Assembly: GCA_021735655.1 (NCBI GenBank)
Contig: JAIPGM010000009.1
Span: 4,976 to 68,975, forward strand
Source: Candidatus Omnitrophota bacterium
GTDB taxonomy: Bacteria; Omnitrophota; Gorgyraeia; Duberdicusellales; 4484-171
Direction: 5' to 3'
DNA length: 64,000 nucleotides
This document shows, piece by piece, positions 1 to 13,021 of this stretch (position 1 is the first letter of the stretch; each line of letters begins with the position of its first letter). The notes beneath the pieces were generated by a model. That model was not told where the DNA came from. It was given only the letters and a program-made list of their open reading frames with translations, and ran no database searches. The translations under genes were made by a program, and so were the position numbers.

Positions 1-498
1 TATATTTTTAAATTTTTTTATCGCGAAAACAATATTTTTAAAATAAATGCTTTTTAACGGACGATTAATTACCTCAAAAACTTCCTGCGAACAAGCATCA
101 AGCTTAACTGCAACTAAATCAGCGAGTAATAGGTCTTTCTGGACATCTTCTCTGTGTAATAGAGAAGAGTTAGTTAAAACTGCTATTTTGTTTTTTCGTA
201 TTCTTTTAACCGCCCTTATCGCATCTCCCAAATTCTCGGCGATAGTCGGCTCACCTGCTCCAGAAAAAGTAATATAATCTATTTTTACCGGCGGCAATGA
301 GTCTAGCTCTTCAATAATCTTACTGACCGGAACAAAAACCTTTCTTTCATCGCTAAAAAGCAGGGTTTTGCCCAATTGGCAATATATACAATCAAAACTA
401 CAGATTTTATTGCCTTGAGAAATTAGGTCTATCCCTAAAGAACTGCCCAACCTCCATGAAGGAACCGGGCCGTAAATATATTTAAATTCAGGCTTCAT
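1..498 (-). CDS. Radical SAM protein (N-terminal part; gene continues beyond the left edge)
   Basis: ATG at 498..496. Translation MKPEFKYIYGPVPSWRLGSSLGIDLISQGNKICSFDCIYCQLGK... carries the CxxxCxxC Fe-S motif (CSFDCIYC) and a GAGEPT glycine-rich SAM motif. Not in the ORF track because it runs off the window. Its start lies 3 nt after the stop of the upstream gene, so the two look translationally coupled. Confidence 0.7.
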   Translation of the reverse strand, partial: MKPEFKYIYGPVPSWRLGSSLGIDLISQGNKICSFDCIYCQLGKTLLFSDERKVFVPVSKIIEELDSLPPVKIDYITFSGAGEPTIAENLGDAIRAVKRIRKNKIAVLTNSSLLHREDVQKDLLLADLVAVKLDACSQEVFEVINRPLKSIYFKNIVFAIKKFKNI

Positions 499-501
499 TT
501 G

Positions 502-861
502 TCAACGCACAATGAATTTTGACTTTACGCGGTTAGCCGAAAAAAAATCCTTGGTAAATTTTAAGGCAACTTTATGGTCAAAGAACTTACAGGAAAAAAT
601 ATTAATATAAGAAATACGCCAATGCTCACTGAAATGACCAGTTATCGAGCTGGTTTCAATAAATTGTAAAAGTGAATAACCGCTAGTCTGAGGTTTTTGC
701 AAACCAAAATACGGAAGATGCAACTTACCATATTTCTCCATATCAATTAATTCACAAAGACGGTCGACATATGCACTGATTTTTTTCTTAGACTTCATAG
801 TTTTTAAATCACAATCATATAAGTCCATAATCAGTTCGTACCCGAATGCCTTTTGATCCAT
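502..861 (-). CDS. Small AdoMetDC-like pyruvoyl-dependent decarboxylase proenzyme (SpeH / arginine decarboxylase family)
   Basis: 119 aa. GYELIMDLYDC N-terminal block and ETSSITGHFSEH segment resemble the ES(S) self-cleavage site and HTWPE-like region of class 1 AdoMetDC proenzymes. Confidence 0.55.
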   Translation of the reverse strand: MDQKAFGYELIMDLYDCDLKTMKSKKKISAYVDRLCELIDMEKYGKLHLPYFGLQKPQTSGYSLLQFIETSSITGHFSEHWRISYINIFSCKFFDHKVALKFTKDFFSANRVKSKFIVR

Positions 862-890
862 ACCCGCCTCCTTTAAAAATTAATTAATAT

Positions 891-1286
891 TTAAAAACGT
901 AATAAATAACCGGCTATTGCTCGATAAAGCGTACTTACTGCAAGTATTGAGCAGTGCAGATGGTCTTCGGGTAAACCTTTCAACCTTGTGATCACTTCTC
1001 CCGCAGAGACTGTCAACGCCTCGTTGATTGTTTTACCATAAGCCAGATTAGCGACCATTGCAGCACACGCCCTTGTTGCGCCGCAGCCATCTGTATAATA
1101 TTTAATATCGGTAATCTTTCTATCTTCTATCACCAAATAAAACTCCATCGAATCCCCGCAAGGCCCTTTTAAGTATGACGAAGCTGTAGGATCGCTCATT
1201 CTGCCAAAAAACTTCGGATCATTTAAAAGACTTACAAACTCTTTAGGGTAGCCAGTAGTTTCTTCCTTGTTACTTGAATTTTTCAT
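891..1286 (-). CDS. IscU/NifU-like Fe-S cluster assembly scaffold
   Basis: Three conserved cysteine motifs: GPCGDSMEF, DGCGATRAC and HLHCS. Confidence 0.75.
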   Translation of the reverse strand: MKNSSNKEETTGYPKEFVSLLNDPKFFGRMSDPTASSYLKGPCGDSMEFYLVIEDRKITDIKYYTDGCGATRACAAMVANLAYGKTINEALTVSAGEVITRLKGLPEDHLHCSILAVSTLYRAIAGYLLRF

Positions 1287-1311
1287 ATAGATACCCTCCG
1301 AAATTATCTAT

Positions 1312-2301
1312 TTATGCCGACACGTATTTATTTTTATCTTTAAAACTTGGCTCTCTTGGCCCGTCAACCGGCAGCTTAGACTCACTGATGAATGCCTTAA
1401 AACTTCCTAAACGAACAGATTGCCCGCTTGGCTTATTTGAAAAAAGGTATTGCTTCTTCGTGTCTAATTTTTTTATAAGTTCATCTTCAAAGGCATATGC
1501 CGAAACAAAATCCATTCCATTTTTCGTTAAAACAAAAACAGGTATTTGCCGAGAAAGTTGCATTATAGCCGCAGGGCCGATCATCTGTCTTATATCAAAA
1601 GAAGCGCAACTCCAGACTAAATCAGCGTAATCACGTATCATGTTAATTTTATCTTTAGCTATACCGGTCGTACATATTGCCAATGAAATTATTCTAATAC
1701 CGCTTTCTTTTTCTAACGAACGTAATGCTTTTAAATTCTTAGCTGAATGACCACATATAGTAACCGCAATAGTCTTATATCCTGCTTTTATCGCGCCTTC
1801 AACTCCCCGTACCTGATCAATAAGCGCGTTTTCAAATATCATCTGACAGCCAGCAGCCTTAAGTTTCTGAATAATCGCTTTAATCGGTGAGGTTAACAAT
1901 AAACTATTCATTCGGGCGCCGATGCCTTGTACTATTTCCGGTTTATCGGTAACAACCGTCCCCGCCCCTTCGCAAACTACAACTGCCGAATCTATCGTAC
2001 CTTTTTTTAACGCGAACATGAGCATCTCTGAAGCGCCATATGGTATCGTAACATCATCATATGAAATTTTTCTCTCATCCGTAAAAAAACCGTAGTCTTT
2101 TATTTTTGACTCAATCACTTTTTTTATAGAATTTTTAATGGCTTCCTTATTGTTGCCCCGAATACCACTAAAATCCTTATATAGGTGCTCGGCCAGTGGG
2201 CAAAAAGCAAGTGTTGGCTCGGTAATATTAATGACCTTCCCAGAAGATACACTCACAAACGATGAAAAATATTTTAATATATGGATATCCCGTTTATCCA
2301 T
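1312..2301 (-). CDS. Conserved hypothetical protein
   Basis: 329-aa ORF with no recognisable catalytic motif. Co-oriented and tightly spaced with the Fe-S/MinD genes. May belong to a DUF family seen next to methanogen-type cofactor genes, but I cannot assign it. Confidence 0.4.
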   Translation of the reverse strand: MDKRDIHILKYFSSFVSVSSGKVINITEPTLAFCPLAEHLYKDFSGIRGNNKEAIKNSIKKVIESKIKDYGFFTDERKISYDDVTIPYGASEMLMFALKKGTIDSAVVVCEGAGTVVTDKPEIVQGIGARMNSLLLTSPIKAIIQKLKAAGCQMIFENALIDQVRGVEGAIKAGYKTIAVTICGHSAKNLKALRSLEKESGIRIISLAICTTGIAKDKINMIRDYADLVWSCASFDIRQMIGPAAIMQLSRQIPVFVLTKNGMDFVSAYAFEDELIKKLDTKKQYLFSNKPSGQSVRLGSFKAFISESKLPVDGPREPSFKDKNKYVSA

Positions 2302-2313
2302 AAAATCCTTATT

Positions 2314-3165
2314 CTAAACTTGTAATTTTTCCCAAATTTTGCGAATCTCACCCTTAACTACCGTATCCTTATATTCAATAATAGTCTTACCCTCAACCAT
2401 AGCTTCTACCACTGTTTTATCAAATCTGACTTTACCGGCTAAGGAAATTCCACTCTTTAGGCAATGTTCTTCTATTTTTTCTGACATATCCAAATTTAAA
2501 TCATATTTATTAATTACTAACCGCGAAGGGACATTAAAATGTTTAGTTACTTCTATAACCCTTAACGCATCATGCAAACCGGATAAGGTGGGTTCAGTTA
2601 CTACTACCGCGCAATCTATTCCAGAAAGCGAGGCGATAACCGGACATCCTATACCTGGGGCACCGTCAATGATAACCCAATCACAATTATTCTTCTCGGC
2701 CAGTTCTTTTGCCTGTTTTCTCACCAATGAGACAAGCTTGCCTGAATTCTCTTCAGCGATTCCAAGTTTAGCGTGCACCATCGGGCCAAAGCGAGTTTCG
2801 GAAATAAACCACTCTCCGGCAATATTCTCTTCCATCTTAATAGCGCCAACCGGACAAACATGATAACAAAAAGTACATCCTTCGCAGGAAACCCCATCTA
2901 CAGAAAAATCTTCACTTATAGCAGAGAAACGACAGACTTCAACACATTTGCCGCATTTAACACATTTTTCCTTATCAATAACGGCTGTTTTGCCACTTCT
3001 GAATTCATGTTTTTCTTTGACCGACGGCTTCAGCAAAAGATGCAGATCCGCTGCGTCCACATCGCAGTCAGCCATAACTTTATTTTTCGCCAGTGCCGCG
3101 AAGGCTCCGGTAATTACAGTCTTGCCTGTCCCGCCTTTTCCACTTATTATGACTATTTGCTTCAT
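2314..3165 (-). CDS. MinD/ParA-superfamily P-loop ATPase with inserted 2x[4Fe-4S] ferredoxin domain (COG1149-like)
   Basis: Start reassigned to the internal MKQIVIISGKGGTGKT (deviant Walker A); a GAGAGA RBS lies 6 nt upstream. Two CxxCxxCxxxC motifs (CVKCGKCVEVC and CEGCTFCYHVC) sit between Walker A and the rest of the ATPase fold. Confidence 0.75.
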   Translation of the reverse strand: MKQIVIISGKGGTGKTVITGAFAALAKNKVMADCDVDAADLHLLLKPSVKEKHEFRSGKTAVIDKEKCVKCGKCVEVCRFSAISEDFSVDGVSCEGCTFCYHVCPVGAIKMEENIAGEWFISETRFGPMVHAKLGIAEENSGKLVSLVRKQAKELAEKNNCDWVIIDGAPGIGCPVIASLSGIDCAVVVTEPTLSGLHDALRVIEVTKHFNVPSRLVINKYDLNLDMSEKIEEHCLKSGISLAGKVRFDKTVVEAMVEGKTIIEYKDTVVKGEIRKIWEKLQV

Positions 3166-3175
3166 GCAGTCTCTC

Positions 3176-4522
3176 TTACATTTTATCTGACGCGTTTTGA
3201 GCCGCCAAGACAACCGGATACATAGTTGGAGCAGATGTTAAATAGGGGTGAGTTGCCATTTGCAATGTTTCTAACTCGGTTATCGAGACTCTCTGTTGAA
3301 TAGCCATACCAATAATGTTGATTATTTCCCCCGCTGATATGCCTCCAGCTACCTGCCCACCCATAAAAATACCTGATTGTTTTGAAAAAATAAGTTTTAC
3401 CCTTATTTTGTTTGCTCCGGGAAGGCTTCCGGGATGTTTATCAATACTCTCGGTATTTCCCGAAACAATCTCAAATCCCTCTTTCTTGGCACTCATTTCG
3501 GTAAGACCGGCTGAACCCAAAACCAAACCATCCACGTAAGTTGAGTAAATCGCTATTGTCCCCTTATTTTCACGCACAACCTTTAATTGGTATAGATTTG
3601 CTCCGGCAATCCTCGCCTCAGCAGTAGCAGTAGAAGCAAGCATAACTGGTGTGTCTTTTCTCGTGTAAAAATCTCGTTTTCCGGCACAATCACCCACAGC
3701 AAAGATATCGGAATCAGCAGTACGCATATACTCATCCACCCATATACCCTGGCCTCTTCCTAAATCCAAACCTGCTTCGGTCGCTAAGGCTGTATTCGGA
3801 CTAGCGCCTATCCCTAAAATAACGCTATCCACTTTAAGCTCTTTTCCGTTTTCAAACCGCACACCCTCTACTCTTTCCTTCCCTAAAAATTCAACCACTT
3901 TAGTGTCAGTTAAAATGGTGACTCCTCTTGACTTTAACTTCTCTTCAACCAATAAAGAAAATTCCTTATCAAAAGAATTTGCCAGTAAACACGGAAGAAC
4001 CTCTGCTAAATATACATTAACACCGTTTATTTTTGAAATCTCATCAGCAAATTCAACGCCGATAAATCCTCCCCCCAGAACCAATACATCCTTAGCTTTT
4101 TTTAATTCCGCTACTGTTTTTTTTAAATAATCCATTTCTTTATATATCGGGTAAACTCCCTCTTTATCAATTCCAACTATTGAGGGCTTAATCGGCACCG
4201 AACCAGGGGCAAGGACCAATTTCTCATATTCATATTCTTCGCCACTTTTAGCGGTTACTTTTTTTAGGCTACGGCTTATCTTTACCGCCTCATCAATAAC
4301 GATTTCTATATTATTCTTCTTAAGAGCGTCAAGCCCCAACTTATTGTCATCGGGATTTTTAAGGCTCCAAAACATATAAGGAATACCACAAGGAATACAA
4401 CCGTTAATCACATTTTTCATAACTAAGACATTTTTATCCGGATAATATCGCTTTGCCGTGATCGCACTCACCAACCCAGCTGGTCCACCGCCAACAATAA
4501 GAACATCCACTTTTTTAGCCAT
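3176..4522 (-). CDS. FAD-dependent pyridine nucleotide-disulfide oxidoreductase (NADH oxidase / CoA-disulfide reductase family)
   Basis: N-terminal DVLIVGGGPAGL FAD motif, second GGGFIGVE NAD(P) motif and a C-terminal dimerisation region. 448 aa is typical of Nox/CoADR. Confidence 0.7.
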   Translation of the reverse strand: MAKKVDVLIVGGGPAGLVSAITAKRYYPDKNVLVMKNVINGCIPCGIPYMFWSLKNPDDNKLGLDALKKNNIEIVIDEAVKISRSLKKVTAKSGEEYEYEKLVLAPGSVPIKPSIVGIDKEGVYPIYKEMDYLKKTVAELKKAKDVLVLGGGFIGVEFADEISKINGVNVYLAEVLPCLLANSFDKEFSLLVEEKLKSRGVTILTDTKVVEFLGKERVEGVRFENGKELKVDSVILGIGASPNTALATEAGLDLGRGQGIWVDEYMRTADSDIFAVGDCAGKRDFYTRKDTPVMLASTATAEARIAGANLYQLKVVRENKGTIAIYSTYVDGLVLGSAGLTEMSAKKEGFEIVSGNTESIDKHPGSLPGANKIRVKLIFSKQSGIFMGGQVAGGISAGEIINIIGMAIQQRVSITELETLQMATHPYLTSAPTMYPVVLAAQNASDKM

Positions 4523-4538
4523 AAAGTATACTTCTCCT

Positions 4539-4922
4539 TTATAAAGATTCTAGCATTACACAGAGTCCATAAATTACATCAATGTTATTGTCACGACAAA
4601 ATTTTATCGCAGTTTCATTTTCAGCTCCCGGTTGAAGCCAAACTCTTCTTATAGATTTTTCCCGACATTCCTTTACTATCGCCTCGGTAACCGAAGGAGG
4701 GGTAACCAGATTAGCAACATCAATATTAAAAGGAATATCGCTTATACTTTTATAACCTTTTACTCCGTCGACATCATTTAAACGGGGGTTAACCGGATAT
4801 GCCTCATACCCCCTTTTTATCAAAGTCCTCAAAATTTTATACGCGTATTTAGTTTCATTTCTGAACGAGCCCACGACCGCAAATTTCTTCTGCCTTAAAA
4901 AATCCTTAACTAAGTTTTCCAT
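4539..4922 (-). CDS. CoA-binding domain protein (YccU-like)
   Basis: Start reassigned to MENLVKDFLRQKKFAVVGS; the KSIAVVGAS-type Rossmann start is typical of PF13380. About 127 aa. Confidence 0.55.
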   Translation of the reverse strand: MENLVKDFLRQKKFAVVGSFRNETKYAYKILRTLIKRGYEAYPVNPRLNDVDGVKGYKSISDIPFNIDVANLVTPPSVTEAIVKECREKSIRRVWLQPGAENETAIKFCRDNNIDVIYGLCVMLESL

Positions 4923-5763
4923 CTTTAATCTTATTAAAAAGCTGCTCAAAATCTTTTCTGTATTCGGGAAAGGCTTTTACAATCGGCTCACCTTTTGAAT
5001 AGGTAATTGCTATCTCCTTTTTAAAAGGTATCCGCATAAGAATAGGAACATTCTCCTTTTGGCAATACTCATCTGTTTTATTGTCCCCCAAATCCGAGCG
5101 GTTAATCACGACCCCAAAAGACACTTTCAGCTTTCGTAAAACTTCTACAGCCAGCATTAAATCGTTCAACCCAAACGGCGTTGGCTCAGTAACCAACAGG
5201 CAAAAATCACTTCTCTTTATAGTCTCAACCACCGGGCATGATGTACCAGGAGGAGCATCAATAATAACCGTACCTGTTGGATCAATATACTTCTTGATTT
5301 GCCTTATGACCGGCGGCACCATTGCCTCTCCGATATTTAGACGTCCATGTATAAACTGCATAGAACCAACCTCACCAATCTCGATTTCACCAATCTCTTT
5401 ATTAACTTCCTTTATCGCCGCTTGGGGACAAAAGTAAGTACAGCTTCCGCAGCCATGGCAAAGGTTCGAAAAGACTAAAATGTTTCCCTTCCTCTCCTTG
5501 GATTCGGCTATCACCGCGATAGCATTATAAGCGCATACCTGACGACACTTGCCGCAATAATTACACTTTGCTTGGTCAATTTCCGGAACCGGGATAAAAA
5601 CTTTTTGGATACTGCTTATGGTCGGCTTCAAAAAAATATGTGCGTTGGGCTCTTCAGCGTCACAATCTAAAAACTGCACCCTCTCCTTTATAGAAAGTGC
5701 CAAATTGACCGCTATTGTAGTTTTTCCTGTCCCGCCTTTTCCGCTGGCAATTGATATAATCAT
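4906..5763 (-). CDS. MinD/ParA-superfamily ATPase with inserted ferredoxin domain (second paralog)
   Basis: MIISIASGKGGTGKTT Walker A. CNYCGKCRQVC and CHGCGSCTYFCP cluster motifs. Paralog of 2314..3165. Confidence 0.75.
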   Translation of the reverse strand: MIISIASGKGGTGKTTIAVNLALSIKERVQFLDCDAEEPNAHIFLKPTISSIQKVFIPVPEIDQAKCNYCGKCRQVCAYNAIAVIAESKERKGNILVFSNLCHGCGSCTYFCPQAAIKEVNKEIGEIEIGEVGSMQFIHGRLNIGEAMVPPVIRQIKKYIDPTGTVIIDAPPGTSCPVVETIKRSDFCLLVTEPTPFGLNDLMLAVEVLRKLKVSFGVVINRSDLGDNKTDEYCQKENVPILMRIPFKKEIAITYSKGEPIVKAFPEYRKDFEQLFNKIKDGKLS

Positions 5764-5767
5764 AAAT

Positions 5768-6379
5768 TTACATAAGTGAGTGGCAAGCTGTCACTATTTC
5801 CTGAAACTTACTGGAATACGTTTCTATGCTAAAATCTTTTCTCTGTAAATATTTACCTATATCGTTTAAGTTTACCGAGCCTGCCTTATGAGTTCTCCCT
5901 TCGCTCTCATGAATCTTACCGATTAGTTTTAACCCCTCTTCGTTAAAATCACTCAAGATAAATTTACCTTCAAAACTAGTTACTCTGATAAGTTCATCCA
6001 TTACTTTATAAGGATTTTCGAAATGATGAATAGCGTTGATTACAAATACTGTATCAAAACTTGCATCTTTAAAGCTAAATTGTTCGGCATTTTCTATTTG
6101 AAAATTTACCAATTTTGCAAAACCAAAATATTTTATATTCCGTCTAGCATAATCTTGTTCTTGATACGAAACGTCAACACTAGTAAAATTATACCCTGCC
6201 TTAGCTAACTCAACAGTAAAATAACCTTTTCCAGTCCCCACTTCTAGAATATCTCCATCGAAAGGGCATGATTTCTCTAAAATAAATTTACGCTCTTTTT
6301 CAATATCGTAACCAAAGCTTTTATAAAAATTTACCCTTTCTAAATATCGAGTATAATAATCTGATGTTTTATTTTCCAA
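5768..6379 (-). CDS. Class I SAM-dependent methyltransferase
   Basis: ILEVGTGKGYFT motif I and downstream acidic motif II region. 203 aa. Confidence 0.65.
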   Translation of the reverse strand: MENKTSDYYTRYLERVNFYKSFGYDIEKERKFILEKSCPFDGDILEVGTGKGYFTVELAKAGYNFTSVDVSYQEQDYARRNIKYFGFAKLVNFQIENAEQFSFKDASFDTVFVINAIHHFENPYKVMDELIRVTSFEGKFILSDFNEEGLKLIGKIHESEGRTHKAGSVNLNDIGKYLQRKDFSIETYSSKFQEIVTACHSLM

Positions 6380-6382
6380 AAA

Positions 6383-6601
6383 CTACTCCCTTAACATTCG
6401 AGTCGCACATTTAGGACAATTTAATGAATTACACGGAACGCTTGCCTGATGAGATAATTTCGCCCCACAGCTTGGACAAATACAATTTCCACTTGGGCCA
6501 GCACCAGGACTATTGCCACCATTGCGCCCCCTACCGCGCCCCATTCCTCTACCTGTCCCTGAACCTTGACCGAAAGGACCTGTCCCATCTCCTCTTGGCA
6601 T
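6383..6601 (-). CDS. DUF5320-like protein with C-terminal zinc ribbon
   Basis: MPRGDGTGPFGQGSGTGRGMGRGRGR N-terminus matches the MPxxDGTGPxGxGPMTGRG signature of DUF5320. C-terminus has CxCPxCG...CxxLNCPKC. Confidence 0.55.
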   Translation of the reverse strand: MPRGDGTGPFGQGSGTGRGMGRGRGRNGGNSPGAGPSGNCICPSCGAKLSHQASVPCNSLNCPKCATRMLRE

Positions 6602-6682
6602 TTTATACCTCCTTAATTTTCGAAATTTACTAAATTGATAAATTAACTCCTAAAATTCTTAAGGAAGGATCTTAATCTAACT

Positions 6683-6850
6683 TTATAACGAAATCGCTTC
6701 AACCGGGCATTGGCTTAAACAAGCTCCGCAATCTACACATTCTTGACTAATAACTGCTTTACCCTCTTCAATCTTAATCGCCTGTACTGGACACACATCA
6801 ACACAAGCGCTACAACCAGTACATTTATTATTATCTACTTTAGCCGCCAT
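6683..6850 (-). CDS. 2x[4Fe-4S] ferredoxin
   Basis: Start reassigned to MAAKVDNNKC; an AGGAGGGG RBS lies just upstream. CTGCSACVDVCP and CVDCGACLSQCP motifs. Confidence 0.75.
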   Translation of the reverse strand: MAAKVDNNKCTGCSACVDVCPVQAIKIEEGKAVISQECVDCGACLSQCPVEAISL

Positions 6851-6863
6851 GCCCCCTCCTTTA

Positions 6864-7229
6864 TCATTTATTACCAAAATGTGAATCTACACTTGGACCT
6901 TGGGTTAGTTTAAATTCCCCCCTTTTATACTTCGCTATCACTTCTTTAATTGTTCCCGATACACCAGCAATCACATCAAGGCCTGCTGCCTGTAAGGTCT
7001 GAAAAGCATTTGGTCCAACATTGCCGGTTAAAATTACTTTTACCTGCTTTTCGGCTGCAAGCTGACCCGATTGAATTCCAGCCCCACCCATACTATCTAT
7101 ATTAGGATTCTTAACTGACTCAAAATCCTCTGATTCGGTATCAGCAATAATAAAATACTGACAACGACCAAAGCGAGGATCAACCGTCGAATCTAGGCTA
7201 TCCCCTTGTGACGTAATACAAATCTTCAT
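6864..7229 (-). CDS. Dinitrogenase FeMo-cofactor biosynthesis family protein (NifX/NafY/NifB-C-terminal-like, PF02579)
   Basis: MKICITSQGDSLDSTVDPRFGRCQYFII. The (D/E)PRFGR(C/A)xxF opening and ~120-aa size are typical of this family. Confidence 0.65.
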   Translation of the reverse strand: MKICITSQGDSLDSTVDPRFGRCQYFIIADTESEDFESVKNPNIDSMGGAGIQSGQLAAEKQVKVILTGNVGPNAFQTLQAAGLDVIAGVSGTIKEVIAKYKRGEFKLTQGPSVDSHFGNK

Positions 7230-7240
7230 AAATTTACCTC

Positions 7241-7642
7241 CTATTCATGCTCACAGTTATCTTCATCAGGATGATCACAAGCTGTCTTTTCTACGCCATA
7301 TCCTTTTCCGGCCCCAGGCTGGCAAAGGCTTTCCCCTCCTTTAAGTGTTCCGGCCGTAGCTTGCTTAACTATTTCATCTACTTTTCCGCTAATCCCCATT
7401 ATTGTTTTTATTCCACTTTCATCAAATAACATTTGAGCCCTTTGCCCCATGCCACCAGCGACAATGGCGTTCACTCCTTTCTCCTTTAAAAACTGAGGTA
7501 AAAACCCCGGGTGATGCCCTGGGTTATCAACCACCTGTTTCCTTATTAGTTTATCACCCTCAAGCTCTACAATAGTAAAGGAAGGACACCGGCCAAAATG
7601 AGCTGATACTAAATCACCATCTGTTGAAATTGCTACTTTCAA
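7241..7642 (-). CDS. Dinitrogenase FeMo-cofactor biosynthesis family protein (second paralog) with Cys/His-rich C-terminal tail
   Basis: MKVAISTDGDLVSAHFGRCPSFTIVEL, the same family start, plus a C-terminal CQPGAGKGYGVEKTACDHPDEDNCEHE tail. Confidence 0.65.
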   Translation of the reverse strand: MKVAISTDGDLVSAHFGRCPSFTIVELEGDKLIRKQVVDNPGHHPGFLPQFLKEKGVNAIVAGGMGQRAQMLFDESGIKTIMGISGKVDEIVKQATAGTLKGGESLCQPGAGKGYGVEKTACDHPDEDNCEHE

Positions 7643-7717
7643 AATTACCCCCTTATTAAAAATTTACCAAACAAGTAAGAATAAAGATATTTCCTTACCC
7701 CTACCTATCTCTTTACA

Positions 7718-8068
7718 CTATTTATTACCTTCAAGTCCAGCATTAGATTCTAATTCCTTAATGCGCTGATTCATAGCTTCAATCTCATCCTGCATCAGCT
7801 TCGCTTCGGCTTTTAACTCAACTGCCTCCTGCTGTGGTGTAAGCCCGGGAACATACGGTAATCCAAAATAAGGATTTCCGTAAGCGTAACCGCCGGCTCT
7901 TCGCCATCCAAAGCCTCTTCCAAGACCCCTTCCTAATCCACGACCTCTGCCAAAAAATCCACCTCTGACCGGACGCTGCGCACTTCCTGCCGGCAATGCA
8001 CAATAGCCTCTTGCCCCACCGGTCATCGAGCCTAACCCTTGAGGACCTGTTCCATCGAAACCTGGCAT
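7718..8068 (-). CDS. DUF5320 family protein
   Basis: MPGFDGTGPQGLGSMTGGARGYCA N-terminal signature, an RG/GRG-rich middle and a C-terminal coiled-coil (AEAKLMQDEIEAMNQRIKELE). Confidence 0.6.
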   Translation of the reverse strand: MPGFDGTGPQGLGSMTGGARGYCALPAGSAQRPVRGGFFGRGRGLGRGLGRGFGWRRAGGYAYGNPYFGLPYVPGLTPQQEAVELKAEAKLMQDEIEAMNQRIKELESNAGLEGNK

Positions 8069-8126
8069 TTAAATCACCTCCATTTTTTGTTAATGATAAT
8101 CATTTTCATTAATATTTTAAAAAAAA

Positions 8127-8609
8127 TTACTCCTCCTTTTTACCTTTACATTTATCACATAACCCATAAAATTGGATAACGTGATCGTCGATTTTAAAGT
8201 TATATTTTTTAGACAATCCTTTTTCTGTCTTCTGTAATAGTTCAATTTCATCTTTAATAAAATCAGTATAGTCAATAACCCTTCCACAATTCCTACATAC
8301 TAAATGATGATGATGATGCCGTTGGCCTTTGGGGCCCTGGTTTAACTCATAGCGTGCTCTTCTATCTCCAAAATCTGATCTAATTACCAAGCCCATTTGA
8401 ACAAGCAATTCAAGCGTACGATACACAGTAGTTAAGCCAACATTGGGATAATCCTTATGAACCTTTATATATACATCCTCAGCACTAACATGTACAGAGG
8501 TTGCACCTAAAACGTCCAAAATTGCCCTTCTCGGAACAGTAAACCTATAACCACATCCTTTGAATTTGCCTTGCCACCAGCTAGGCCCTCTTTTGCATCT
8601 ACCTTGCAC
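8127..8609 (-). CDS. Fur-family metalloregulator (Fur/Zur/PerR)
   Basis: DNA-binding helix TVYRTLELLVQMGL. HHHHHLVCRNCGRV and CDKC metal-site motifs. The track's Met is a GTG start; an AAGGAGGAG RBS lies upstream. The exact start is uncertain. Confidence 0.7.
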   Translation of the reverse strand: MQGRCKRGPSWWQGKFKGCGYRFTVPRRAILDVLGATSVHVSAEDVYIKVHKDYPNVGLTTVYRTLELLVQMGLVIRSDFGDRRARYELNQGPKGQRHHHHHLVCRNCGRVIDYTDFIKDEIELLQKTEKGLSKKYNFKIDDHVIQFYGLCDKCKGKKEE

Positions 8610-8620
8610 TACTCCTCCTT

Positions 8621-8671
8621 ATTGATAATGGTTTCCATTTCTAATATAACATTCATCTCAAAGCTTGTCAA
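8621..8671 (-). promoter_or_regulatory. Sigma70-like promoter with overlapping Fur-box-like operator upstream of the Fur gene
   Basis: Read on the minus strand: TTGACA (8671..8666), a 17-nt spacer, then TATATT (8648..8643). It is followed at once by AGAAATGGAAACCATTATCAA (8642..8622). Its plus-strand form TTGATAATGGTTTCCATTTCT matches the GATAATGATAATCATTATC Fur box at about 12 of 17 positions. Confidence 0.45.
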
Positions 8672-8914
8672 GGTGGTTTTTCAAAAAAATACTGTCTCAG
8701 GAAATCTAAATATACAAGAATAGTAAACTTTAGGGAAAGGTTTAGTAAAATAGCGGCTTGAAACCGCCCAAAGCGGCGAAGCCCAAGAACAAGGACAACT
8801 TTCGAGTGCCTGCCGGCAGCCAGGGATCGGATATTCTTAAGCACCTAAGTTTGGAAAAAGATTCGGCTCTTGCCCCGAGATCAACTTCTGATTATCCGAA
8901 ACATAAAATGCAAA

Positions 8915-9055
8915 CTATTGCATTTGTTTTACAGATGCAATAAGGGCTAAAACACCTTTGCCAATTAGCCATGCAATAGCGATAACTATAACCGCAATGA
9001 TAAATGGTTTTAGAGATCCGGTGCTTGGTTGCAATGAATCTTTCTTGTCTGCCAT
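8915..9055 (-). CDS. Unannotated 46-aa single-TM membrane peptide
   Basis: Not in the ORF track because it is under 60 aa. ATG at 9055..9053 is preceded by AAGGGGGT 7 nt upstream. Translation MADKKDSLQPSTGSLKPFIIAVIVIAIAWLIGKGVLALIASVKQMQ has one clear hydrophobic helix. It lies directly downstream of the 9077..10012 gene. Confidence 0.4.
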   Translation of the reverse strand: MADKKDSLQPSTGSLKPFIIAVIVIAIAWLIGKGVLALIASVKQMQ

Positions 9056-9076
9056 GTCTTTACCCCCTTCACTTTA

Positions 9077-10012
9077 TTACAGCTTATCGACTATCTGATA
9101 CAAAACCCCTCCGGCAATATCAGGCTTTGGAAAAACATATTTGCGCGCGGAAATTGTTATCTCAGTCTTGTTATCCGACTCCCTCCTGAGTTGAATCGCC
9201 ACCATCGCACCCTGTATATTCGCTTTAATGGCTCCGTTTGCCGCATCCTCTTTGGTTAATTTTCCAATCCGTTTTACTACCTCAAGGCTTACTTCATACA
9301 CATGTTGAAAGCTGGCATCCGTGGTTTGCTGCACACTATCCTTACCTAAAAATGTTGCCGCGATACCAACCGGCAAGGCCGCCACTCCAGACAACATAAC
9401 AAGGCCGTATATCTTAGCGGCTTTTATCCCCGCAGCCTTTACCGGTTCCACAAGGATCAAGACAGCCAGTTGTTGCGCACTAGTAATACCTTTATAGCTT
9501 TTATGAATATTAACGTCCTGCACTCGCACAGCCGGCTCCGTGCCTACTGAATAATCTTTATAAACTATTTTTCCAATGCCTAGAGTCAAGAGATCGATTC
9601 GCATCGGCATAGGCTTAGACGGCTTTGGCGCCTGCACCACCTTTAACGAATCTACATTGAGCTCTCCTTCTTTGTTCTTCATGAGCCCCATCTCATCTAA
9701 CTCAACCTCCACAAGTACCAAGTGTAATTTTTGTTTAAAAAGGGCAGCGCGGTCATAGATAACGTTTATTTTCGAGCAAGAGACAAGTATGCCCTTAGGA
9801 AACCCACTTGGATTGTATATTTTGAGCCCGGATATACGTATAGATGATTTTAAAATACTAAATGAAAAACCATCCATATGGACCGGCACTCCGGTAATGC
9901 GAGAGGCGGCAGTTGTCACCACAGATTTAATTATCGGATTTTTAAAAACTATGATAGATACTAAAAGAACTACTATTACTCCTAGCACTATAAGAAATTT
10001 CTTCATAAGCAC
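9077..10012 (-). CDS. Hypothetical membrane-anchored protein
   Basis: N-terminal TM/signal anchor (MLMKKFLIVLGVIVVLLVSIIVF). 311 aa. No catalytic motif recognised. Confidence 0.45.
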   Translation of the reverse strand: MLMKKFLIVLGVIVVLLVSIIVFKNPIIKSVVTTAASRITGVPVHMDGFSFSILKSSIRISGLKIYNPSGFPKGILVSCSKINVIYDRAALFKQKLHLVLVEVELDEMGLMKNKEGELNVDSLKVVQAPKPSKPMPMRIDLLTLGIGKIVYKDYSVGTEPAVRVQDVNIHKSYKGITSAQQLAVLILVEPVKAAGIKAAKIYGLVMLSGVAALPVGIAATFLGKDSVQQTTDASFQHVYEVSLEVVKRIGKLTKEDAANGAIKANIQGAMVAIQLRRESDNKTEITISARKYVFPKPDIAGGVLYQIVDKL

Positions 10013-10181
10013 CCCCCTATCCCGCTGATTCTATTTTCAATAGAGTCTTTCTTACTTTCGAGCTAAACCAAAAGCCCCGCCTATGCCGGCGACAAATCCG
10101 CCAATCAAAAGCCAGAGCGCCCTGTCTGTAGACGTGTCCGCGAAAAAGCGCGCTACATCGGCACTAGCCGAGAGATAGACT

Positions 10182-10643
10182 TTATTTCATGCTTAAAACA
10201 ATATGATTATTTTTTATTTCTGGCAAAATCTCGGCAAAACGCATCATCATCTCATCAGTAGACTTTAATCTAGAAACTTTCACCTTATTTTGGTTTAGCT
10301 TAACCATACAACCGGTTTCTTCTTCAATGATCTTCTCAATAGCTGCATAAGTGTAATATTTGGGATCAAATTGTACCTGTTTTAAATTTTTTATATCCAA
10401 AGAACTTCTATGAGTTCCAGGAAGGTAAATTGTTCCATTGTTGAAATCAACCGCGTAAGCAATGACACCAGGAATTATAAAAAGCAATAAGCAAAGCCCA
10501 TCCATAACTGCAACTCCCGCATCAATCCTCCCAGCCTTCTGTCCTTTGCGTTCAGGATACATAATAGTCCCACATCCTGACAACTGAACAATTAAAATAG
10601 CGTAAAACAAAACATGTAACATTTTTGATAACTTCTTAACCAT
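10182..10643 (-). CDS. Lipoprotein, hypothetical
   Basis: Signal peptide with LSGCG lipobox followed by a hydrophobic stretch. 153 aa. Confidence 0.5.
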   Translation of the reverse strand: MVKKLSKMLHVLFYAILIVQLSGCGTIMYPERKGQKAGRIDAGVAVMDGLCLLLFIIPGVIAYAVDFNNGTIYLPGTHRSSLDIKNLKQVQFDPKYYTYAAIEKIIEEETGCMVKLNQNKVKVSRLKSTDEMMMRFAEILPEIKNNHIVLSMK

Positions 10644-10694
10644 AAATCCTCCTTTACTTTTTTAACTCAACCCTGCTTTTCCTCAATAATCATT

Positions 10695-10961
10695 TTATGC
10701 ATGCCTTACAACAAGACGTGTCAAGCCAACTAAGATCACAGCGCCACCAAGTGCCACTAAAAAGGCACCAATTGAACTACTACCGGTAGATAACCCGATT
10801 TCTCTGGCTATCCATCCGCCAAGCATAGCCCCAAAAATCCCAATCACAATATCTCCGATAATTCCAAAACCCCGACCGCTGACAATCAACCCTGCCAACC
10901 ATCCAATCGCTCCACCGATAACGAGAAACCATACCCACTGTCCTATTGTGTTATGCTCCAT
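10695..10961 (-). CDS. GlsB/YeaQ/YmgE-family (transglycosylase-associated) stress membrane protein
   Basis: 88 aa. Glycine-zipper helices WVWFLVIGGAIGWLAGLIV and IVIGIFGAMLGGWIA typical of the family. Confidence 0.65.
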   Translation of the reverse strand: MEHNTIGQWVWFLVIGGAIGWLAGLIVSGRGFGIIGDIVIGIFGAMLGGWIAREIGLSTGSSSIGAFLVALGGAVILVGLTRLVVRHA

Positions 10962-11212
10962 ACCTCTTACCTCCTTTTTTTACGGTCTATTGAAAAAGGC
11001 CGCATTGTCGTCAATAAACTACAAGTCACATCCACGGATTTTTTAAACGAACGAAATTCCTTTTCTCTTTTTTATATCACACCTATTCCGTGGAGCTTTC
11101 TCACCCCCTAATAATTCCTTTAAAAAATTCTTAAGGAAATCAGTTGTCGGTGACAGCAAACATTCAATGCGTTCGTTTTAAAATAGAGTCGCATAATTCG
11201 AATAATTTTTCT

Positions 11213-13021
11213 TTAATTAAAATTTTGTATTATTGAAGCATCGCTCCAGTTATAATTTGTCTCTAAAAGCAAGATAGTCTGAATCAAAGCTAGATGCGAA
11301 TACCCCTGAGGAAAGTTACCGGTCAAACGGCCGGAACTTATTTCCACATCCTCAGAGAAAAGACTAAATTTATTCAGACAGCGTAAAATATTTTTCAGCA
11401 TTTCCCGACTGGTTTTTTCTTCTCCGATCAAATATAAAGAATTTATCATCCAAAAGGTGCAAACGATAAAGGCGTTTTCCGGCTGACCGAATTCATCCTC
11501 TGAAATGTAACGAAAAGTAAAACCGGACTTGGTTAGTTCTTGATATGTTTTTTCCACAGTCTTAATCATTTTCGGATCGCTCTTTTCCAGAAAGCCGTAA
11601 TGTAGCATCAAAAGATTAGCGGCATCTAACTCCTGAGCACCATAACACATCACAAATGACTCGCGAGCCTCATCCCAACCGTTTTCTAGTATATCTTGCT
11701 TGATCTCCGAAGCTACTTTTAACCATTTTTCGGCATTACTAGGCCTTCCAATAAAACTAGCAATCTTTGCAGCCCTATCCATAGCTACCCAACTCATAAC
11801 CTTCGAATGAACATAATGCCTTAATTCCCCCCTACGCTCCCATATTCCATTGTCCGGCTCTCGCCATTTTTTCAACACATTATTTGCTAAATCCCTAACT
11901 ACTGTCCAAATTTCTTCATCTATCGTAGCCTTTCCTCTGCGATTGGTTATAAGGTACGTATAGATAGCCTCAATGAGCTGGCCATAGATATCATTTTGCA
12001 CCTGTCTATAGGCATCGTTACCGATTCGTACAGGCTTAGAACCCTCATAGCCGGCCAGATGATCTAATATTTTCTCGGTCAATAGCCTTTCGCCATTTAT
12101 TCCGTACATAACCGATATATTCTCGTGTTTCAGTAACCTTCGGTTTAATACAAAATTCATATAGCGCTGCGCCGAACGCATATGCCCGATTCTAGTATAT
12201 AAATCTACAATCATTGAGGCATCCCTTATCCAACAATATCGATAGTCCCAGTTCCGATCCTTGCCAATTATCTCCGGCAGCGATGTTGTCGGCGCTGCAA
12301 TAACAGCCCCCGAACGCTGATAGGTAAGAAGCTTGAGGGTGATAGCTGAACGGATAAGTAAATCTTTATACTTTGAGGGAACTTTTGTTCGATATACCCA
12401 ATCCAGCCAGTAAGTCTTTGTCTTCTCGTATTCAATATATATCTTATCCGTATCGATGTCTTGTAGCTTTTCGTGATAAGAAAAAAGCAAAAAAGAAGTG
12501 CCCTTCAATTCCATGGGCTCTGAGCTCATTATTTTATTATAGTCTAAATTACTATATAAATAAAAACTTGCGTATTCACCTTTCTTGGAGGTAATCTTTA
12601 AATGATTATTTTCTAAGACAATCTCGCAATCACTAATGGCATAATTCGGCTTTGGTTTCAACTCAACGATAATTTTTGGATTACCAGAAATAAGCAAAAT
12701 ATCCCGGTGAATCTCCGGTGGACAGTAATACTCGTCTCTTAAAGTAAAAAAACGAGGCATATAATCCCTTAATTCAAAAACCCCATCTTCTGTAGTAAAA
12801 ATGGTCCGAAGGATCGGCGTGTGAACAACATAATGTTGTTCTACTTTTATTATATTCGCAGCGGATATCTTGAAATATCCTCCTTTATCTTGGTCTAGGA
12901 TTTTAGCAAATACCGATGGCGAATCAAAAAAAGGAAAACACAGCCAATCTATACTGCAATCACTAGAAATCAAAGCCGAGCTTGTGCAATTTCCGATAAT
13001 CGCATAATCGTAGTTTTTCAT
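11213..13021 (-). CDS. Glycoside hydrolase family 15 protein (glucoamylase / GH15-type trehalase-like)
   Basis: N-terminus YDYAIIGNCTSSALISSDCSIDWLCFPFFDSPSVFAKILD is typical of bacterial GH15 N-domains. 602 aa with an (alpha/alpha)6 catalytic region containing WIRDAS. Confidence 0.7.
   Translation of the reverse strand: MKNYDYAIIGNCTSSALISSDCSIDWLCFPFFDSPSVFAKILDQDKGGYFKISAANIIKVEQHYVVHTPILRTIFTTEDGVFELRDYMPRFFTLRDEYYCPPEIHRDILLISGNPKIIVELKPKPNYAISDCEIVLENNHLKITSKKGEYASFYLYSNLDYNKIMSSEPMELKGTSFLLFSYHEKLQDIDTDKIYIEYEKTKTYWLDWVYRTKVPSKYKDLLIRSAITLKLLTYQRSGAVIAAPTTSLPEIIGKDRNWDYRYCWIRDASMIVDLYTRIGHMRSAQRYMNFVLNRRLLKHENISVMYGINGERLLTEKILDHLAGYEGSKPVRIGNDAYRQVQNDIYGQLIEAIYTYLITNRRGKATIDEEIWTVVRDLANNVLKKWREPDNGIWERRGELRHYVHSKVMSWVAMDRAAKIASFIGRPSNAEKWLKVASEIKQDILENGWDEARESFVMCYGAQELDAANLLMLHYGFLEKSDPKMIKTVEKTYQELTKSGFTFRYISEDEFGQPENAFIVCTFWMINSLYLIGEEKTSREMLKNILRCLNKFSLFSEDVEISSGRLTGNFPQGYSHLALIQTILLLETNYNWSDASIIQNFN

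Follow-up and report, generated by a model that had tools for sequence, protein, structure and literature searches.

A candidate Fur-controlled operon of Omnitrophota related to the orange protein complex of Desulfovibrio

Introduction

Which function is served by a long series of iron-sulfur (Fe-S) protein and ATPase genes that starts with a regulator of the Fur family? The question is raised by a stretch of 64,000 nucleotides (nt) from a Candidatus Omnitrophota bacterium (contig JAIPGM010000009.1 of assembly GCA_021735655.1, positions 4,976 to 68,975 of the forward strand), which is referred to as the window in the following. Between positions 8671 and 1 of the window, 15 consecutive genes are encoded on the minus strand, which either overlap or are separated by 3 to 81 nt. 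Gene calls were taken from the listing of open reading frames (ORFs), and protein families were assigned by Pfam and NCBIfam scans of the translated ORFs. The operon is truncated at the window start, where the gene of a radical S-adenosylmethionine (SAM) enzyme is incomplete; the window contains the promoter-proximal half of a long Omnitrophota operon, and the gene content beyond the window start was deduced from the two relatives L081 and L083. A sequence-only reading of the same DNA had described this closely packed minus-strand gene order with the Fur-family gene in first position, which is borne out by the ORF listing and the scans. All families it had named were confirmed, and a DUF2099 protein and an AdoMet_dc-like protein, which it had left unnamed, can be added.

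The genes of the module match the ORP (orange protein) complex, which is conserved in many strict anaerobes. The ORP complex and the MrpORP protein of Desulfovibrio have been studied biochemically; the physiological role of ORP has been unclear since 2011 and is still described as such, and functions in cell division and in Fe-S metabolism have both been proposed (PMC6345978, PMC8359166). It is probable that the Fur-family protein of the window is a repressor that controls its own gene together with an Fe-S machinery of the ORP type, and that the operon serves the stress-induced assembly and trafficking of Fe-S clusters. The location of an ORP core directly behind a Fur-family sensor with two operators provides an independent regulatory clue to iron and Fe-S homeostasis, and the neighbouring genes for IscU, Mrp, thioredoxin, a J-domain protein, ferritin and FeoAB point in the same direction. 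The system is not categorically new biology; however, several protein families of unknown function become experimentally approachable.

Relation to the ORP complex

Two proteins of the PF02579 family are encoded in the module, which are termed PF02579a and PF02579b here. The top PDB match of PF02579b is 2WFB, the ORP of D. gigas, which is aligned over the full length of the protein (residues 2-113, 74 bits, E = 8e-20). PF02579a is aligned with positions 265-364 of the NCBIfam MrpORP model (98.8 bits, with a model cutoff of 450), which correspond to the C-terminal 'Di-Nase' domain of the model, and its PDB matches are TM1816 and PH0822. The protein bears the HFGxC, proline-rich and CDH-type Cys/His motifs, which have been described for MrpORP's Di-Nase domain (PMC6345978). 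A fusion of Mrp/NBP35 with PF02579, as it exists in MrpORP, was not found at the window, and the Mrp half is absent from the window part of the operon; eight relatives, however, possess a separate Mrp gene, whose product scores 371 bits on the N-terminal half of the MrpORP model. In the locus L027, both PF02579 genes are joined in one ORF, with the PF02579a match starting at position 3397.

The two MinD-type ATPases, ATPase 1 and ATPase 2, are 33% identical to each other, and the Walker A motif of ATPase 1 is deviant (GKGGTGKT). Judged by domain layout, both share the architecture of Orp3 and Orp4, which are MinD-type proteins with two [4Fe-4S] motifs. In vitro, Fe-S clusters are transferred to Orp3/Orp4 by MrpORP (PMC6345978). 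Because of the match of PF02579b to 2WFB, the match of PF02579a to MrpORP, the separate Mrp gene and the Orp3/Orp4 architecture of the ATPases, the module is, by homology and domain layout, the Omnitrophota form of the Desulfovibrio ORP cluster and thus a variant of a known system rather than an orphan. The sequence-only reading had described these families as co-occurring without an assigned function; the combination does have a described relative in the ORP complex and MrpORP (PMC6345978, PMC8359166).

Like the ORP complex of D. vulgaris and D. alaskensis (Orp3, Orp4, Orp5, Orp8 and Orp9), the Omnitrophota module comprises paired MinD-type ATPases with two [4Fe-4S] motifs each, a single-domain PF02579 protein, an MrpORP-type PF02579 domain and, in relatives, an Mrp ATPase, and both systems are restricted to anaerobes. 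However, MrpORP is split into separate genes in Omnitrophota, and the genes form one co-directional string, whereas the Desulfovibrio genes are organized in two divergent operons. Expression of the latter is controlled by sigma-54, IHF and the redox-sensing activator OrpR; in Omnitrophota, a sigma-70 promoter and a Fur-family repressor are predicted instead, and no sigma-54 activator is present in the gene strings of L081 and L083. This predicted Fur-family control in place of sigma-54 and OrpR is new relative to the known ORP system. The Omnitrophota operon also contains additional genes, namely those for DUF5320 proteins, ferredoxin, IscU, a flavoprotein related to coenzyme A (CoA)-disulfide reductase (CoADR), DUF2099, SAM enzymes and transporters.

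Conservation and extent of the operon

ATPase 1 was used as query to collect 80 loci with one genome per species, and the presence of genes was determined by tblastn of the window proteins on these loci; counts refer to loci with enough flanking sequence. Most of the 40 closest loci, which have identities of 64-85%, are titled Candidatus Omnitrophota, and the others carry automatic labels such as 'uncultured Planctomycetia'. The Omnitrophota core consists of the genes for the Fur-family regulator (29/29), the first DUF5320 protein, DUF5320a (27/29), PF02579a and PF02579b (28/29 each) and ATPase 2 (24/24), which adjoins or lies near ATPase 1 in all 24 Omnitrophota loci and in all 25 loci of other phyla. 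The remaining genes are variable: a methyltransferase gene lies upstream of ATPase 1 in 21/29 loci, and the short DUF5320 protein (14/29), the ferredoxin (7/29), the flavoprotein (8/24), the CoA-binding protein (7/24), DUF2099 (5/24), IscU (10/24) and the radical SAM enzyme (10/24) are less frequent. The AdoMet_dc-like protein is encoded in the window and in only one of 24 further loci. The comparison of gene neighbourhoods, which the sequence-only reading had proposed as a check, thus reveals a conserved co-directional unit behind the Fur-family gene. A chance collinearity of the genes was rejected because of the synteny across loci. An archaeal origin, which was raised by the match of one protein to a methanogenesis marker, was rejected as well, as all close loci belong to Omnitrophota and both the promoter and the Shine-Dalgarno sequences are of the bacterial type.

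Outside Omnitrophota, for instance in Planctomycetota, Desulfurellales, Clostridia, WOR-3, Eisenbacteria and Dehalococcoidales, ATPase 1 is likewise accompanied by PF02579b (20/24), ATPase 2 and PF02579a (15/25). The Fur gene is almost absent from these loci (2/24), and its linkage is therefore a lineage-specific feature that is superimposed on a widespread module of anaerobes. DUF5320 is also scarcer there (3/24 flank-complete loci); the co-occurrence of PF02579, COG1149 and DUF5320 that the sequence-only reading had noted is found across phyla, with DUF5320 less frequent outside Omnitrophota.

In L081 and L083, more than 30 genes follow each other on one strand and form a string of about 20 kb. 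The genes present in the window are followed by those for DUF5981, an Mrp ATPase, a radical SAM enzyme and a DUF89 phosphatase; further on, a peptide deformylase, a zinc-ribbon protein and a protein with metallo-beta-lactamase fold are encoded, and then a HypA-like protein, thioredoxin, OsmC, a J-domain protein and a methyltransferase. Next come either DsrE and FeoA, or TrmO and, past a LysM amidase, ZnuA. Genes for MetK, ferritin and a radical SAM enzyme with BATS domain of 483 amino acids (aa) are inserted in the string of one relative, and FeoA and FeoB are encoded in tight succession in that of L020. Clustering of the unassigned ORFs across loci confirmed the recurring genes and added a ZIP transporter. 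Downstream in the string of L005 (16990-18267), a cation-diffusion-facilitator (CDF) transporter is encoded, which carries a C-terminal PF02579 domain. The best named NCBIfam models for this fusion are the magnetosome transporters MamB and MamM, with scores far under the cutoffs.

Promoter, operators and RNA elements

The promoter upstream of the regulator gene, which is referred to as fur, is the top-scoring sigma-70-like site across 11.2 kb (Table 1), and a terminator-like hairpin of the preceding transcription unit is located just upstream of it (8768-8752). The Fur-box-like site that the sequence-only reading had placed at 8621-8642 contains the palindrome TGGAAACCATTATCA (Fur box 1) and is conserved across loci. 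Fur box 1, which begins 5 nt past the -10 hexamer, spans the position where transcription probably starts, and this makes autoregulation probable. A second box (TGAAAATGATTATCA, Fur box 2), which can be added to the first, lies in the 58 nt that separate fur from the first DUF5320 gene. It is the better of the two, with one mismatch to the classical 7-1-7 sequence of the B. subtilis type, TGATAATNATTATCA, and overlaps the -10-like sequence TATCAT (8098-8093) of an internal promoter-like site (8121-8093). Since the boxes cover the start site and a -10 element, their positions argue for repression, including that of fur itself.

In the window alone, three matches to the Fur-box motif were counted, with 1.55 expected, which is not above chance; the case for the operators is therefore based on their conservation across loci. 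Conservation was scored as the presence of sites with at most two mismatches from TGAAAATNATTTTCA in 32 Omnitrophota loci, and control rates were obtained from control windows of the same length. A site upstream of fur, 27-72 nt ahead of the start, is present in 18 of the 32 loci, compared to about 4% in the controls, and 24 of the 32 have a site at a fixed offset in the fur-DUF5320 spacer (control about 2%). The two further relatives L081 and L083 contain both boxes, too.

A 19-bp intercistronic hairpin, which is followed by a U-rich tract, is located on the minus strand between DUF5320a and PF02579a (7710-7669; fold -19.3 kcal/mol, z = -4.35). Hairpins of equal strength and unrelated sequence are found in the same spacer of 12 other loci. 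They may mark a conserved element, either a partial terminator or a stabiliser of the mRNA, by which fur and DUF5320a would be expressed above the level of the distal genes. An Rfam scan of window positions 1-12000 revealed no riboswitch or known RNA.

The Fur-family regulator

The regulator contains two CxxC pairs, an HHHHH run and the recognition helix TVYRTLELL, which is identical to that of the best-matching solved Fur protein. It is nearer to Fur than to PerR, both by NCBIfam (131 vs 91 bits) and in comparison with PDB sequences, where the best matches are Fur proteins (99.6 bits vs 75.5 bits for B. subtilis PerR). The best equivalog model is NF051892 (Fur_Bacil; 131 bits, cutoff 220), and the regulator scores under every equivalog cutoff. 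Its recognition helix carries the Fur-type Arg (YRT) and lacks the PerR-type Asn. Work on PerR and Fur of B. subtilis has linked this Arg to the Fur box. In agreement with a Fur-type recognition helix, both boxes have a G at position 2 and a C at position 14 (TG...CA ends) and do not correspond to the PerR-type box TTATAATNATTATAA.

The O-donor residue of the metal site, five positions past the first CxxC, is an Asp (VIDY), which corresponds to Asp104 of PerR. This placement was obtained by alignment to the B. subtilis PerR sequence, in which the positions H37, D85, H91, H93 and D104 were confirmed. Among about 35 operon-linked orthologues, only that of L017 deviates, with an Asn in place of the Asp, whereas the aligned solved Fur proteins have a Glu at this position, which is equivalent to Glu108 of B. 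subtilis Fur. According to published work, the Fe(II) site is reactive towards H2O2 if this residue is an Asp (PerR Asp104) and not a Glu (Fur Glu108) (PMC4866751). On alignment, the regulator is thus a hybrid, which combines a DNA-reading helix of the Fur type with the PerR-type Asp in its metal site. It may be an Fe(II)-dependent repressor, which is perhaps also inactivated by peroxide; given the Asp of the PerR type in the sensor site, derepression by peroxide may add to iron control. The sequence-only reading had suggested metal control, which is supported by the conserved operators and the family of the regulator; however, this is probably only half of the regulation, since the PerR-type Asp marks peroxide sensing.

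With PerR and the PerR-like paralogues of Bacillus, such as PerR3 of B. licheniformis, the regulator has in common the fold of the Fur family, a structural Zn site and a His/Glu/His/His/Asp regulatory site, in which the Asp occupies the place responsible for reactivity with H2O2 (PMC4866751). In contrast to these proteins, it has the Fur-type Arg in the helix, TG...CA operators and an overall sequence nearer to Fur. The regulator thus lends itself well to testing the Asp/Glu rule of peroxide sensitivity. Second, distant Fur-family paralogues are encoded less than 10 kb from the operon-linked regulator in L083 (2907-3341), L006 (around 10881) and L022 (around 15396), with identities of 28-32% in L006 and L022. 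Thus, the operon-linked regulator may not be the sole metal sensor.

DUF5320 proteins and their similarity to IssA

No functional literature was found on DUF5320; literature searches on COG1149 or on Omnitrophota and Fur gave nothing relevant, and a broad search on Fur, PF02579 and MinD returned unrelated papers only. An alignment of DUF5320a revealed an invariant N-terminal MPxxDxTGPxGxG...C motif, a Gly/Arg/aromatic-rich segment and a conserved C-terminal coiled coil. DUF5320b combines the N-terminal DUF5320 motif with a zinc-ribbon-like CxxC...CxxC tail, and the same short form is present in L049. In six Planctomycetota loci (Table 1), a single protein consists of an ORP-like PF02579 domain, a Gly/Arg/Met-rich linker, a DUF5320 coiled coil and a 2x[4Fe-4S] ferredoxin. 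The fusions are supported by Pfam matches of the L049 protein and by hhalign (97.6% probability, E 3e-12). Fusions are absent from the best 120 DUF5320a homologues and surfaced via the PF02579 side only. Because PF02579b, DUF5320 and ferredoxin are fused in these loci and encoded by separate adjacent genes in the window, they very probably work together, and the fusions indirectly favour a physical complex like that of ORP. This is the first assignment of a partner to DUF5320, and it suggests a link to the storage of iron-sulfide of the IssA type.

IssA of Pyrococcus consists of a PF02579 domain and a cationic Gly/aromatic-rich tail, which binds anionic thioferrate, and stores Fe and S as thioferrate nanoparticles (PMC5524996). 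Its tail, which is Pro-rich and then Gly/Arg/aromatic-rich, comprises 70 aa with 15 Gly, 7 cationic and 14 aromatic residues and one Cys and has an isoelectric point of 10.7 (PMC5524996). Residues 1-76 of DUF5320a contain 24 Gly, 9 cationic and 11 aromatic residues and one near-invariant Cys, with an isoelectric point of 11.2. The PF02579 proteins of the window (121 and 133 aa) lack an IssA-like tail, and the tail-like sequence is found on DUF5320a. The system thus resembles IssA of Pyrococcus furiosus and its 'IssX' relatives in the combination of a PF02579 domain with a flexible cationic Gly/Arg-rich segment, both of which are on one chain in the six Planctomycetota relatives, and in its place in the Fe/S metabolism of anaerobes. 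In contrast to IssA, the cationic segment of the window is part of separate DUF5320 proteins with an N-terminal motif and a coiled coil, and the likeness to DUF5320 is compositional only. Moreover, IssA is regulated by the abundance of sulfur and iron in Pyrococcus and not by an adjacent Fur-family repressor.

It could be speculated that DUF5320 and the ORP-type PF02579 protein are the bacterial counterpart of IssA: a cationic, disordered scaffold that is multimerised by its coiled coil would wrap anionic iron-sulfide, the MinD-ferredoxin ATPases would load or mobilise it at the expense of ATP, and the Fur/PerR hybrid would release it upon iron scarcity or cluster oxidation. We consider this model unlikely. 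If it were true, the ORP complex would gain a concrete function in Fe-S storage and emergency re-supply, and DUF5320 would be the first stand-alone 'mineral-binding tail' protein.

Accessory enzymes of the operon

The sequence-only reading had annotated the FAD/NAD(P)H-dependent protein as an NADH oxidase. It is indeed a flavoprotein, but its nearest PDB relatives are CoA-disulfide/persulfide reductases: the best matches are A. fulgidus NoxA-3, Pyrococcus CoADR and CoA-persulfide reductase, whose single active-site Cys motif CGIPY is kept. With 221 bits, the protein scores under the cutoff of the NCBIfam CoADR model, and the CoA-disulfide/persulfide reductases are the closest family to which it can be assigned.

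The DUF2099 protein exceeds the curated cutoff of the 'methanogenesis marker 8' model TIGR03275 (240.2 vs 232.7 bits); as the protein comes from a bacterium, the name does not suit it. The family has about 500 homologues in the collection searched; of the best 120, those with a named source belong almost exclusively to Omnitrophota, in which the family appears to be abundant. The protein contains four invariant Cys, and its predicted fold is FrhB-like with flavin and Fe-S; electron transfer via flavin and Fe-S clusters would be the most economical reading of its role. A literature search on DUF2099 and methanogenesis marker 8 found nothing relevant.

The putative U-type scaffold scores above the Pfam cutoff for NifU_N and reaches 89.3 bits with TIGR03419, which is under the cutoff of 187.9. 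The AdoMet_dc-like protein scores only 21 bits with the SpeH model and has no PDB sequence match; the region aligned with the self-cleavage motif reads ETSS, where ES is usual. Its gene is found only in the window and in L002, and close relatives have DUF5981 and Mrp at this place. A full-length orthologue of the radical SAM enzyme (263 aa; L005:14320-15111) fits no named NCBIfam family.

Proposed function and rival explanations

According to the proposed mechanism, the Fe(II)-loaded repressor would sit on both boxes and keep the operon shut. Iron shortage would lead to derepression, and oxidation of the sensor site by peroxide may have the same effect. The gene products would then build clusters of Fe-S or related metal sulfides, keep them and pass them on. 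IscU would serve as the scaffold, the anionic clusters would be held by the PF02579 and the cationic, Gly/Arg-rich DUF5320 proteins, and the MinD-ferredoxin ATPases, together with Mrp, might be ATP-driven carriers or insertion factors, comparable to MrpORP and Orp3/Orp4 in vitro. Electrons could be provided by the ferredoxin and the FrhB-like DUF2099 protein, and the CoA-persulfide/disulfide reductase and its CoA-binding partner might handle sulfane sulfur or thiol redox. The presence of a J-domain protein and thioredoxin in the relatives would be in line with this model; the same-strand context in relatives further includes Mrp, DsrE, ferritin, FeoA/FeoB, ZIP, the CDF-PF02579 fusion, the HypA-like protein and OsmC. 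In Escherichia coli, the suf operon, which is repressed by Fur, is responsible for Fe-S assembly under stress. By analogy, the logic of the Omnitrophota operon might be that of a back-up Fe-S system under iron starvation and oxidative stress: both would be operons for Fe-S assembly and trafficking with Fe(II)-Fur on the promoter, for which induction by iron starvation and oxidative stress is expected. However, the protein families are wholly different, with no SufBCD or SufS/E in the Omnitrophota operon; the regulator is the first gene of the operon, and peroxide sensing, if real, would reside in the same repressor and not in OxyR.

A number of points weigh against this function. That the regulator binds, which effector it answers to and in which direction it acts is deduced only from where the operators lie. 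A cysteine desulfurase (aminotransferase class V) is encoded neither in the window region nor in the 20-kb strings of L081 and L083. The ORP genes of Desulfovibrio are switched on by OrpR under reducing conditions (PMC8359166), which is the opposite polarity to induction by peroxide, and a role in cell division has been proposed for ORP. Furthermore, the orange protein purified from Desulfovibrio carries Mo-Cu-S and not Fe-S. The metallo-beta-lactamase-fold protein, DUF89, the methyltransferases, the radical SAM enzyme and the AdoMet_dc-like protein are not explained by a simple carrier model.

Four other explanations were weighed, each of which fits fewer conserved features than the carrier model. 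If PF02579 and DUF5320 proteins deposited Fe and S as IssA does in Pyrococcus, or released them under Fur derepression, the operon would serve the storage and mobilisation of Fe-S. The composition of the DUF5320a segment resembles that of the IssA tail (PMC5524996), a PF02579 domain and such a tail are on one polypeptide in the six Planctomycetota loci, ferritin and the CDF-PF02579 fusion occur in the strings of some relatives, and the hairpin past DUF5320a could raise the stoichiometry of this protein. However, the likeness is one of composition, the linkers of the fusions are Met-rich and poor in aromatic residues, and repression by Fur normally marks genes for iron acquisition or iron sparing and not for storage; storage therefore seems an unlikely main function. 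Quite unlikely, too, is the synthesis of a special metallocofactor (Mo/W-Cu-S, carbide or organometallic Fe-S), in which the PF02579 proteins would act as NifX-like carriers and the radical SAM enzyme, the SAM methyltransferase and the AdoMet_dc-like protein would perform the chemistry. PF02579 is the carrier domain of NifB/NifX/NafY, Mo-Cu-S is the cluster bound to the orange protein (PMC6345978), and the operon includes SAM-utilising genes, to which MetK and the 483-aa enzyme are added in one relative, as well as 'methanogenesis marker 8'. Yet the SAM-related genes and DUF2099 are among the variable genes (10/24 for radical SAM, 5/24 for DUF2099, one of 24 plus the window for AdoMet_dc-like), and the core is kept without SAM genes in several phyla. 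Neither a NifEN/NifDK-like scaffold nor a Mo/W transporter nor a candidate recipient enzyme is present in the strings of L081 and L083, and the radical SAM enzyme fits no cofactor-maturase family above cutoff. The sequence-only reading had suggested the assembly, insertion or repair of a complex Fe-S or metallocofactor, of which this is the stronger version. The content of Fe-S, metal and thiol-redox genes agrees with the general direction of this proposal, but ordinary Fe-S trafficking or repair is better supported, as no nitrogenase-like or hydrogenase-like recipient is encoded.

MinD-like positioning or a role in cell division, with the Fe-S domains as mere redox sensors, was first proposed for the ORP complex of Desulfovibrio. 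It would be consistent with the MinD/ParA family of both ATPases, the morphological defects of a D. vulgaris orpR mutant and the polar localization of MrpORP (PMC6345978, PMC8359166). However, the gene string contains no minC/E, ftsZ or parB, the genes conserved nearby all relate to metals, sulfur or redox, control is exerted by a metal or peroxide sensor, and the ORP authors now favour an Fe-S role for MrpORP, all of which renders a division function very unlikely here. The products could also detoxify oxidants and protect thiols without building clusters, as expected for a PerR-type defence operon against oxidative stress. The Asp at the position of PerR Asp104, which is shared by the orthologues except that of L017 (PMC4866751), the CoADR/NOX-family flavoprotein and the thioredoxin, OsmC and ferritin of relatives would suit such an operon. 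As the recognition helix and the operators are of the Fur type, the overall similarity is higher to Fur, and the invariant core consists of cluster carriers while the redox enzymes are among the variable genes, this explanation is highly improbable.

Coordinates and neighbouring features

The genes and regulatory elements of the module and the Planctomycetota fusion proteins are listed in Table 1.

Table 1. Positions of operon features in the window and of PF02579-DUF5320-ferredoxin fusions in Planctomycetota loci
Feature	Position	Strand	Evidence or remark
sigma-70-type promoter, TTGACA, 17-nt spacer with TG extension, TATATT	8671-8643	-	11/12 positions
Fur box 1, TGGAAACCATTATCA	8637-8623	-	7-1-7 palindrome, inside the previously noted site 8621-8642
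Fur-family regulator, 160 aa	8609-8127	-	PF01475, 113.6 bits
Fur box 2, TGAAAATGATTATCA	8108-8094	-	7-1-7 palindrome, fur-DUF5320a spacer
DUF5320a, 116 aa	8068-7718	-	PF17253, 78.4 bits
PF02579a, 133 aa	7642-7241	-	PF02579, 83.4 bits
PF02579b, 121 aa, orange-protein (Orp8) homologue	7229-6864	-	PF02579, 89.1 bits
Small 2x[4Fe-4S] ferredoxin	6877-6683	-	Fer4 families
DUF5320b, 72 aa, short form, zinc-ribbon-like tail	6601-6383	-	PF17253, 28.8 bits, cutoff 27
Class I SAM-dependent methyltransferase	6379-5768	-	Methyltransf_11, 74 bits
MinD-type ATPase 1 with inserted 2x[4Fe-4S] ferredoxin domain	5763-4906	-	CbiA/ParA and Fer4
CoA_binding_2 protein	4949-4539	-	PF13380, 118.4 bits
FAD/NAD(P)H flavoprotein, CoA-disulfide/persulfide reductase-like	4522-3176	-	Pyr_redox_2, 200 bits
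MinD-type ATPase 2 with inserted 2x[4Fe-4S] domain	3213-2314	-	Pfam
DUF2099 / 'methanogenesis marker 8' homologue	2301-1312	-	TIGR03275, 240.2 bits
Putative IscU/NifU-N-type Fe-S scaffold	1286-891	-	NifU_N, 82 bits
AdoMet_dc-like protein, 119 aa, divergent	861-502	-	PF02675, 56 bits
Radical SAM enzyme, CxxxCxxC motif	498-1	-	PF04055, 50.7 bits; N-terminal 166 aa, cut by window start
Planctomycetota fusion	L044:2491-3315
Planctomycetota fusion	L047:497-1363
Planctomycetota fusion	L049:6622-7599
Planctomycetota fusion	L052:4055-4936
Planctomycetota fusion	L060:16338-17120
Planctomycetota fusion	L067:1076-1852

Upstream of the operon, a small hydrophobic ORF of 46 aa without Pfam match is located on the minus strand (8917-9056). 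It has its own Shine-Dalgarno-like sequence and is flanked by a DUF748 gene on one side and, on the other, by the terminator-like hairpin ahead of the fur promoter. At a greater distance, two further minus-strand ORFs were observed in the window. A 731-aa protein (21937-24132) combines a radical SAM domain of the lysine-2,3-aminomutase type with a C-terminal ATP-grasp domain of the D-Ala-D-Ala-ligase type, and a giant ORF of 3,657 aa extends from 49044 to 60017.

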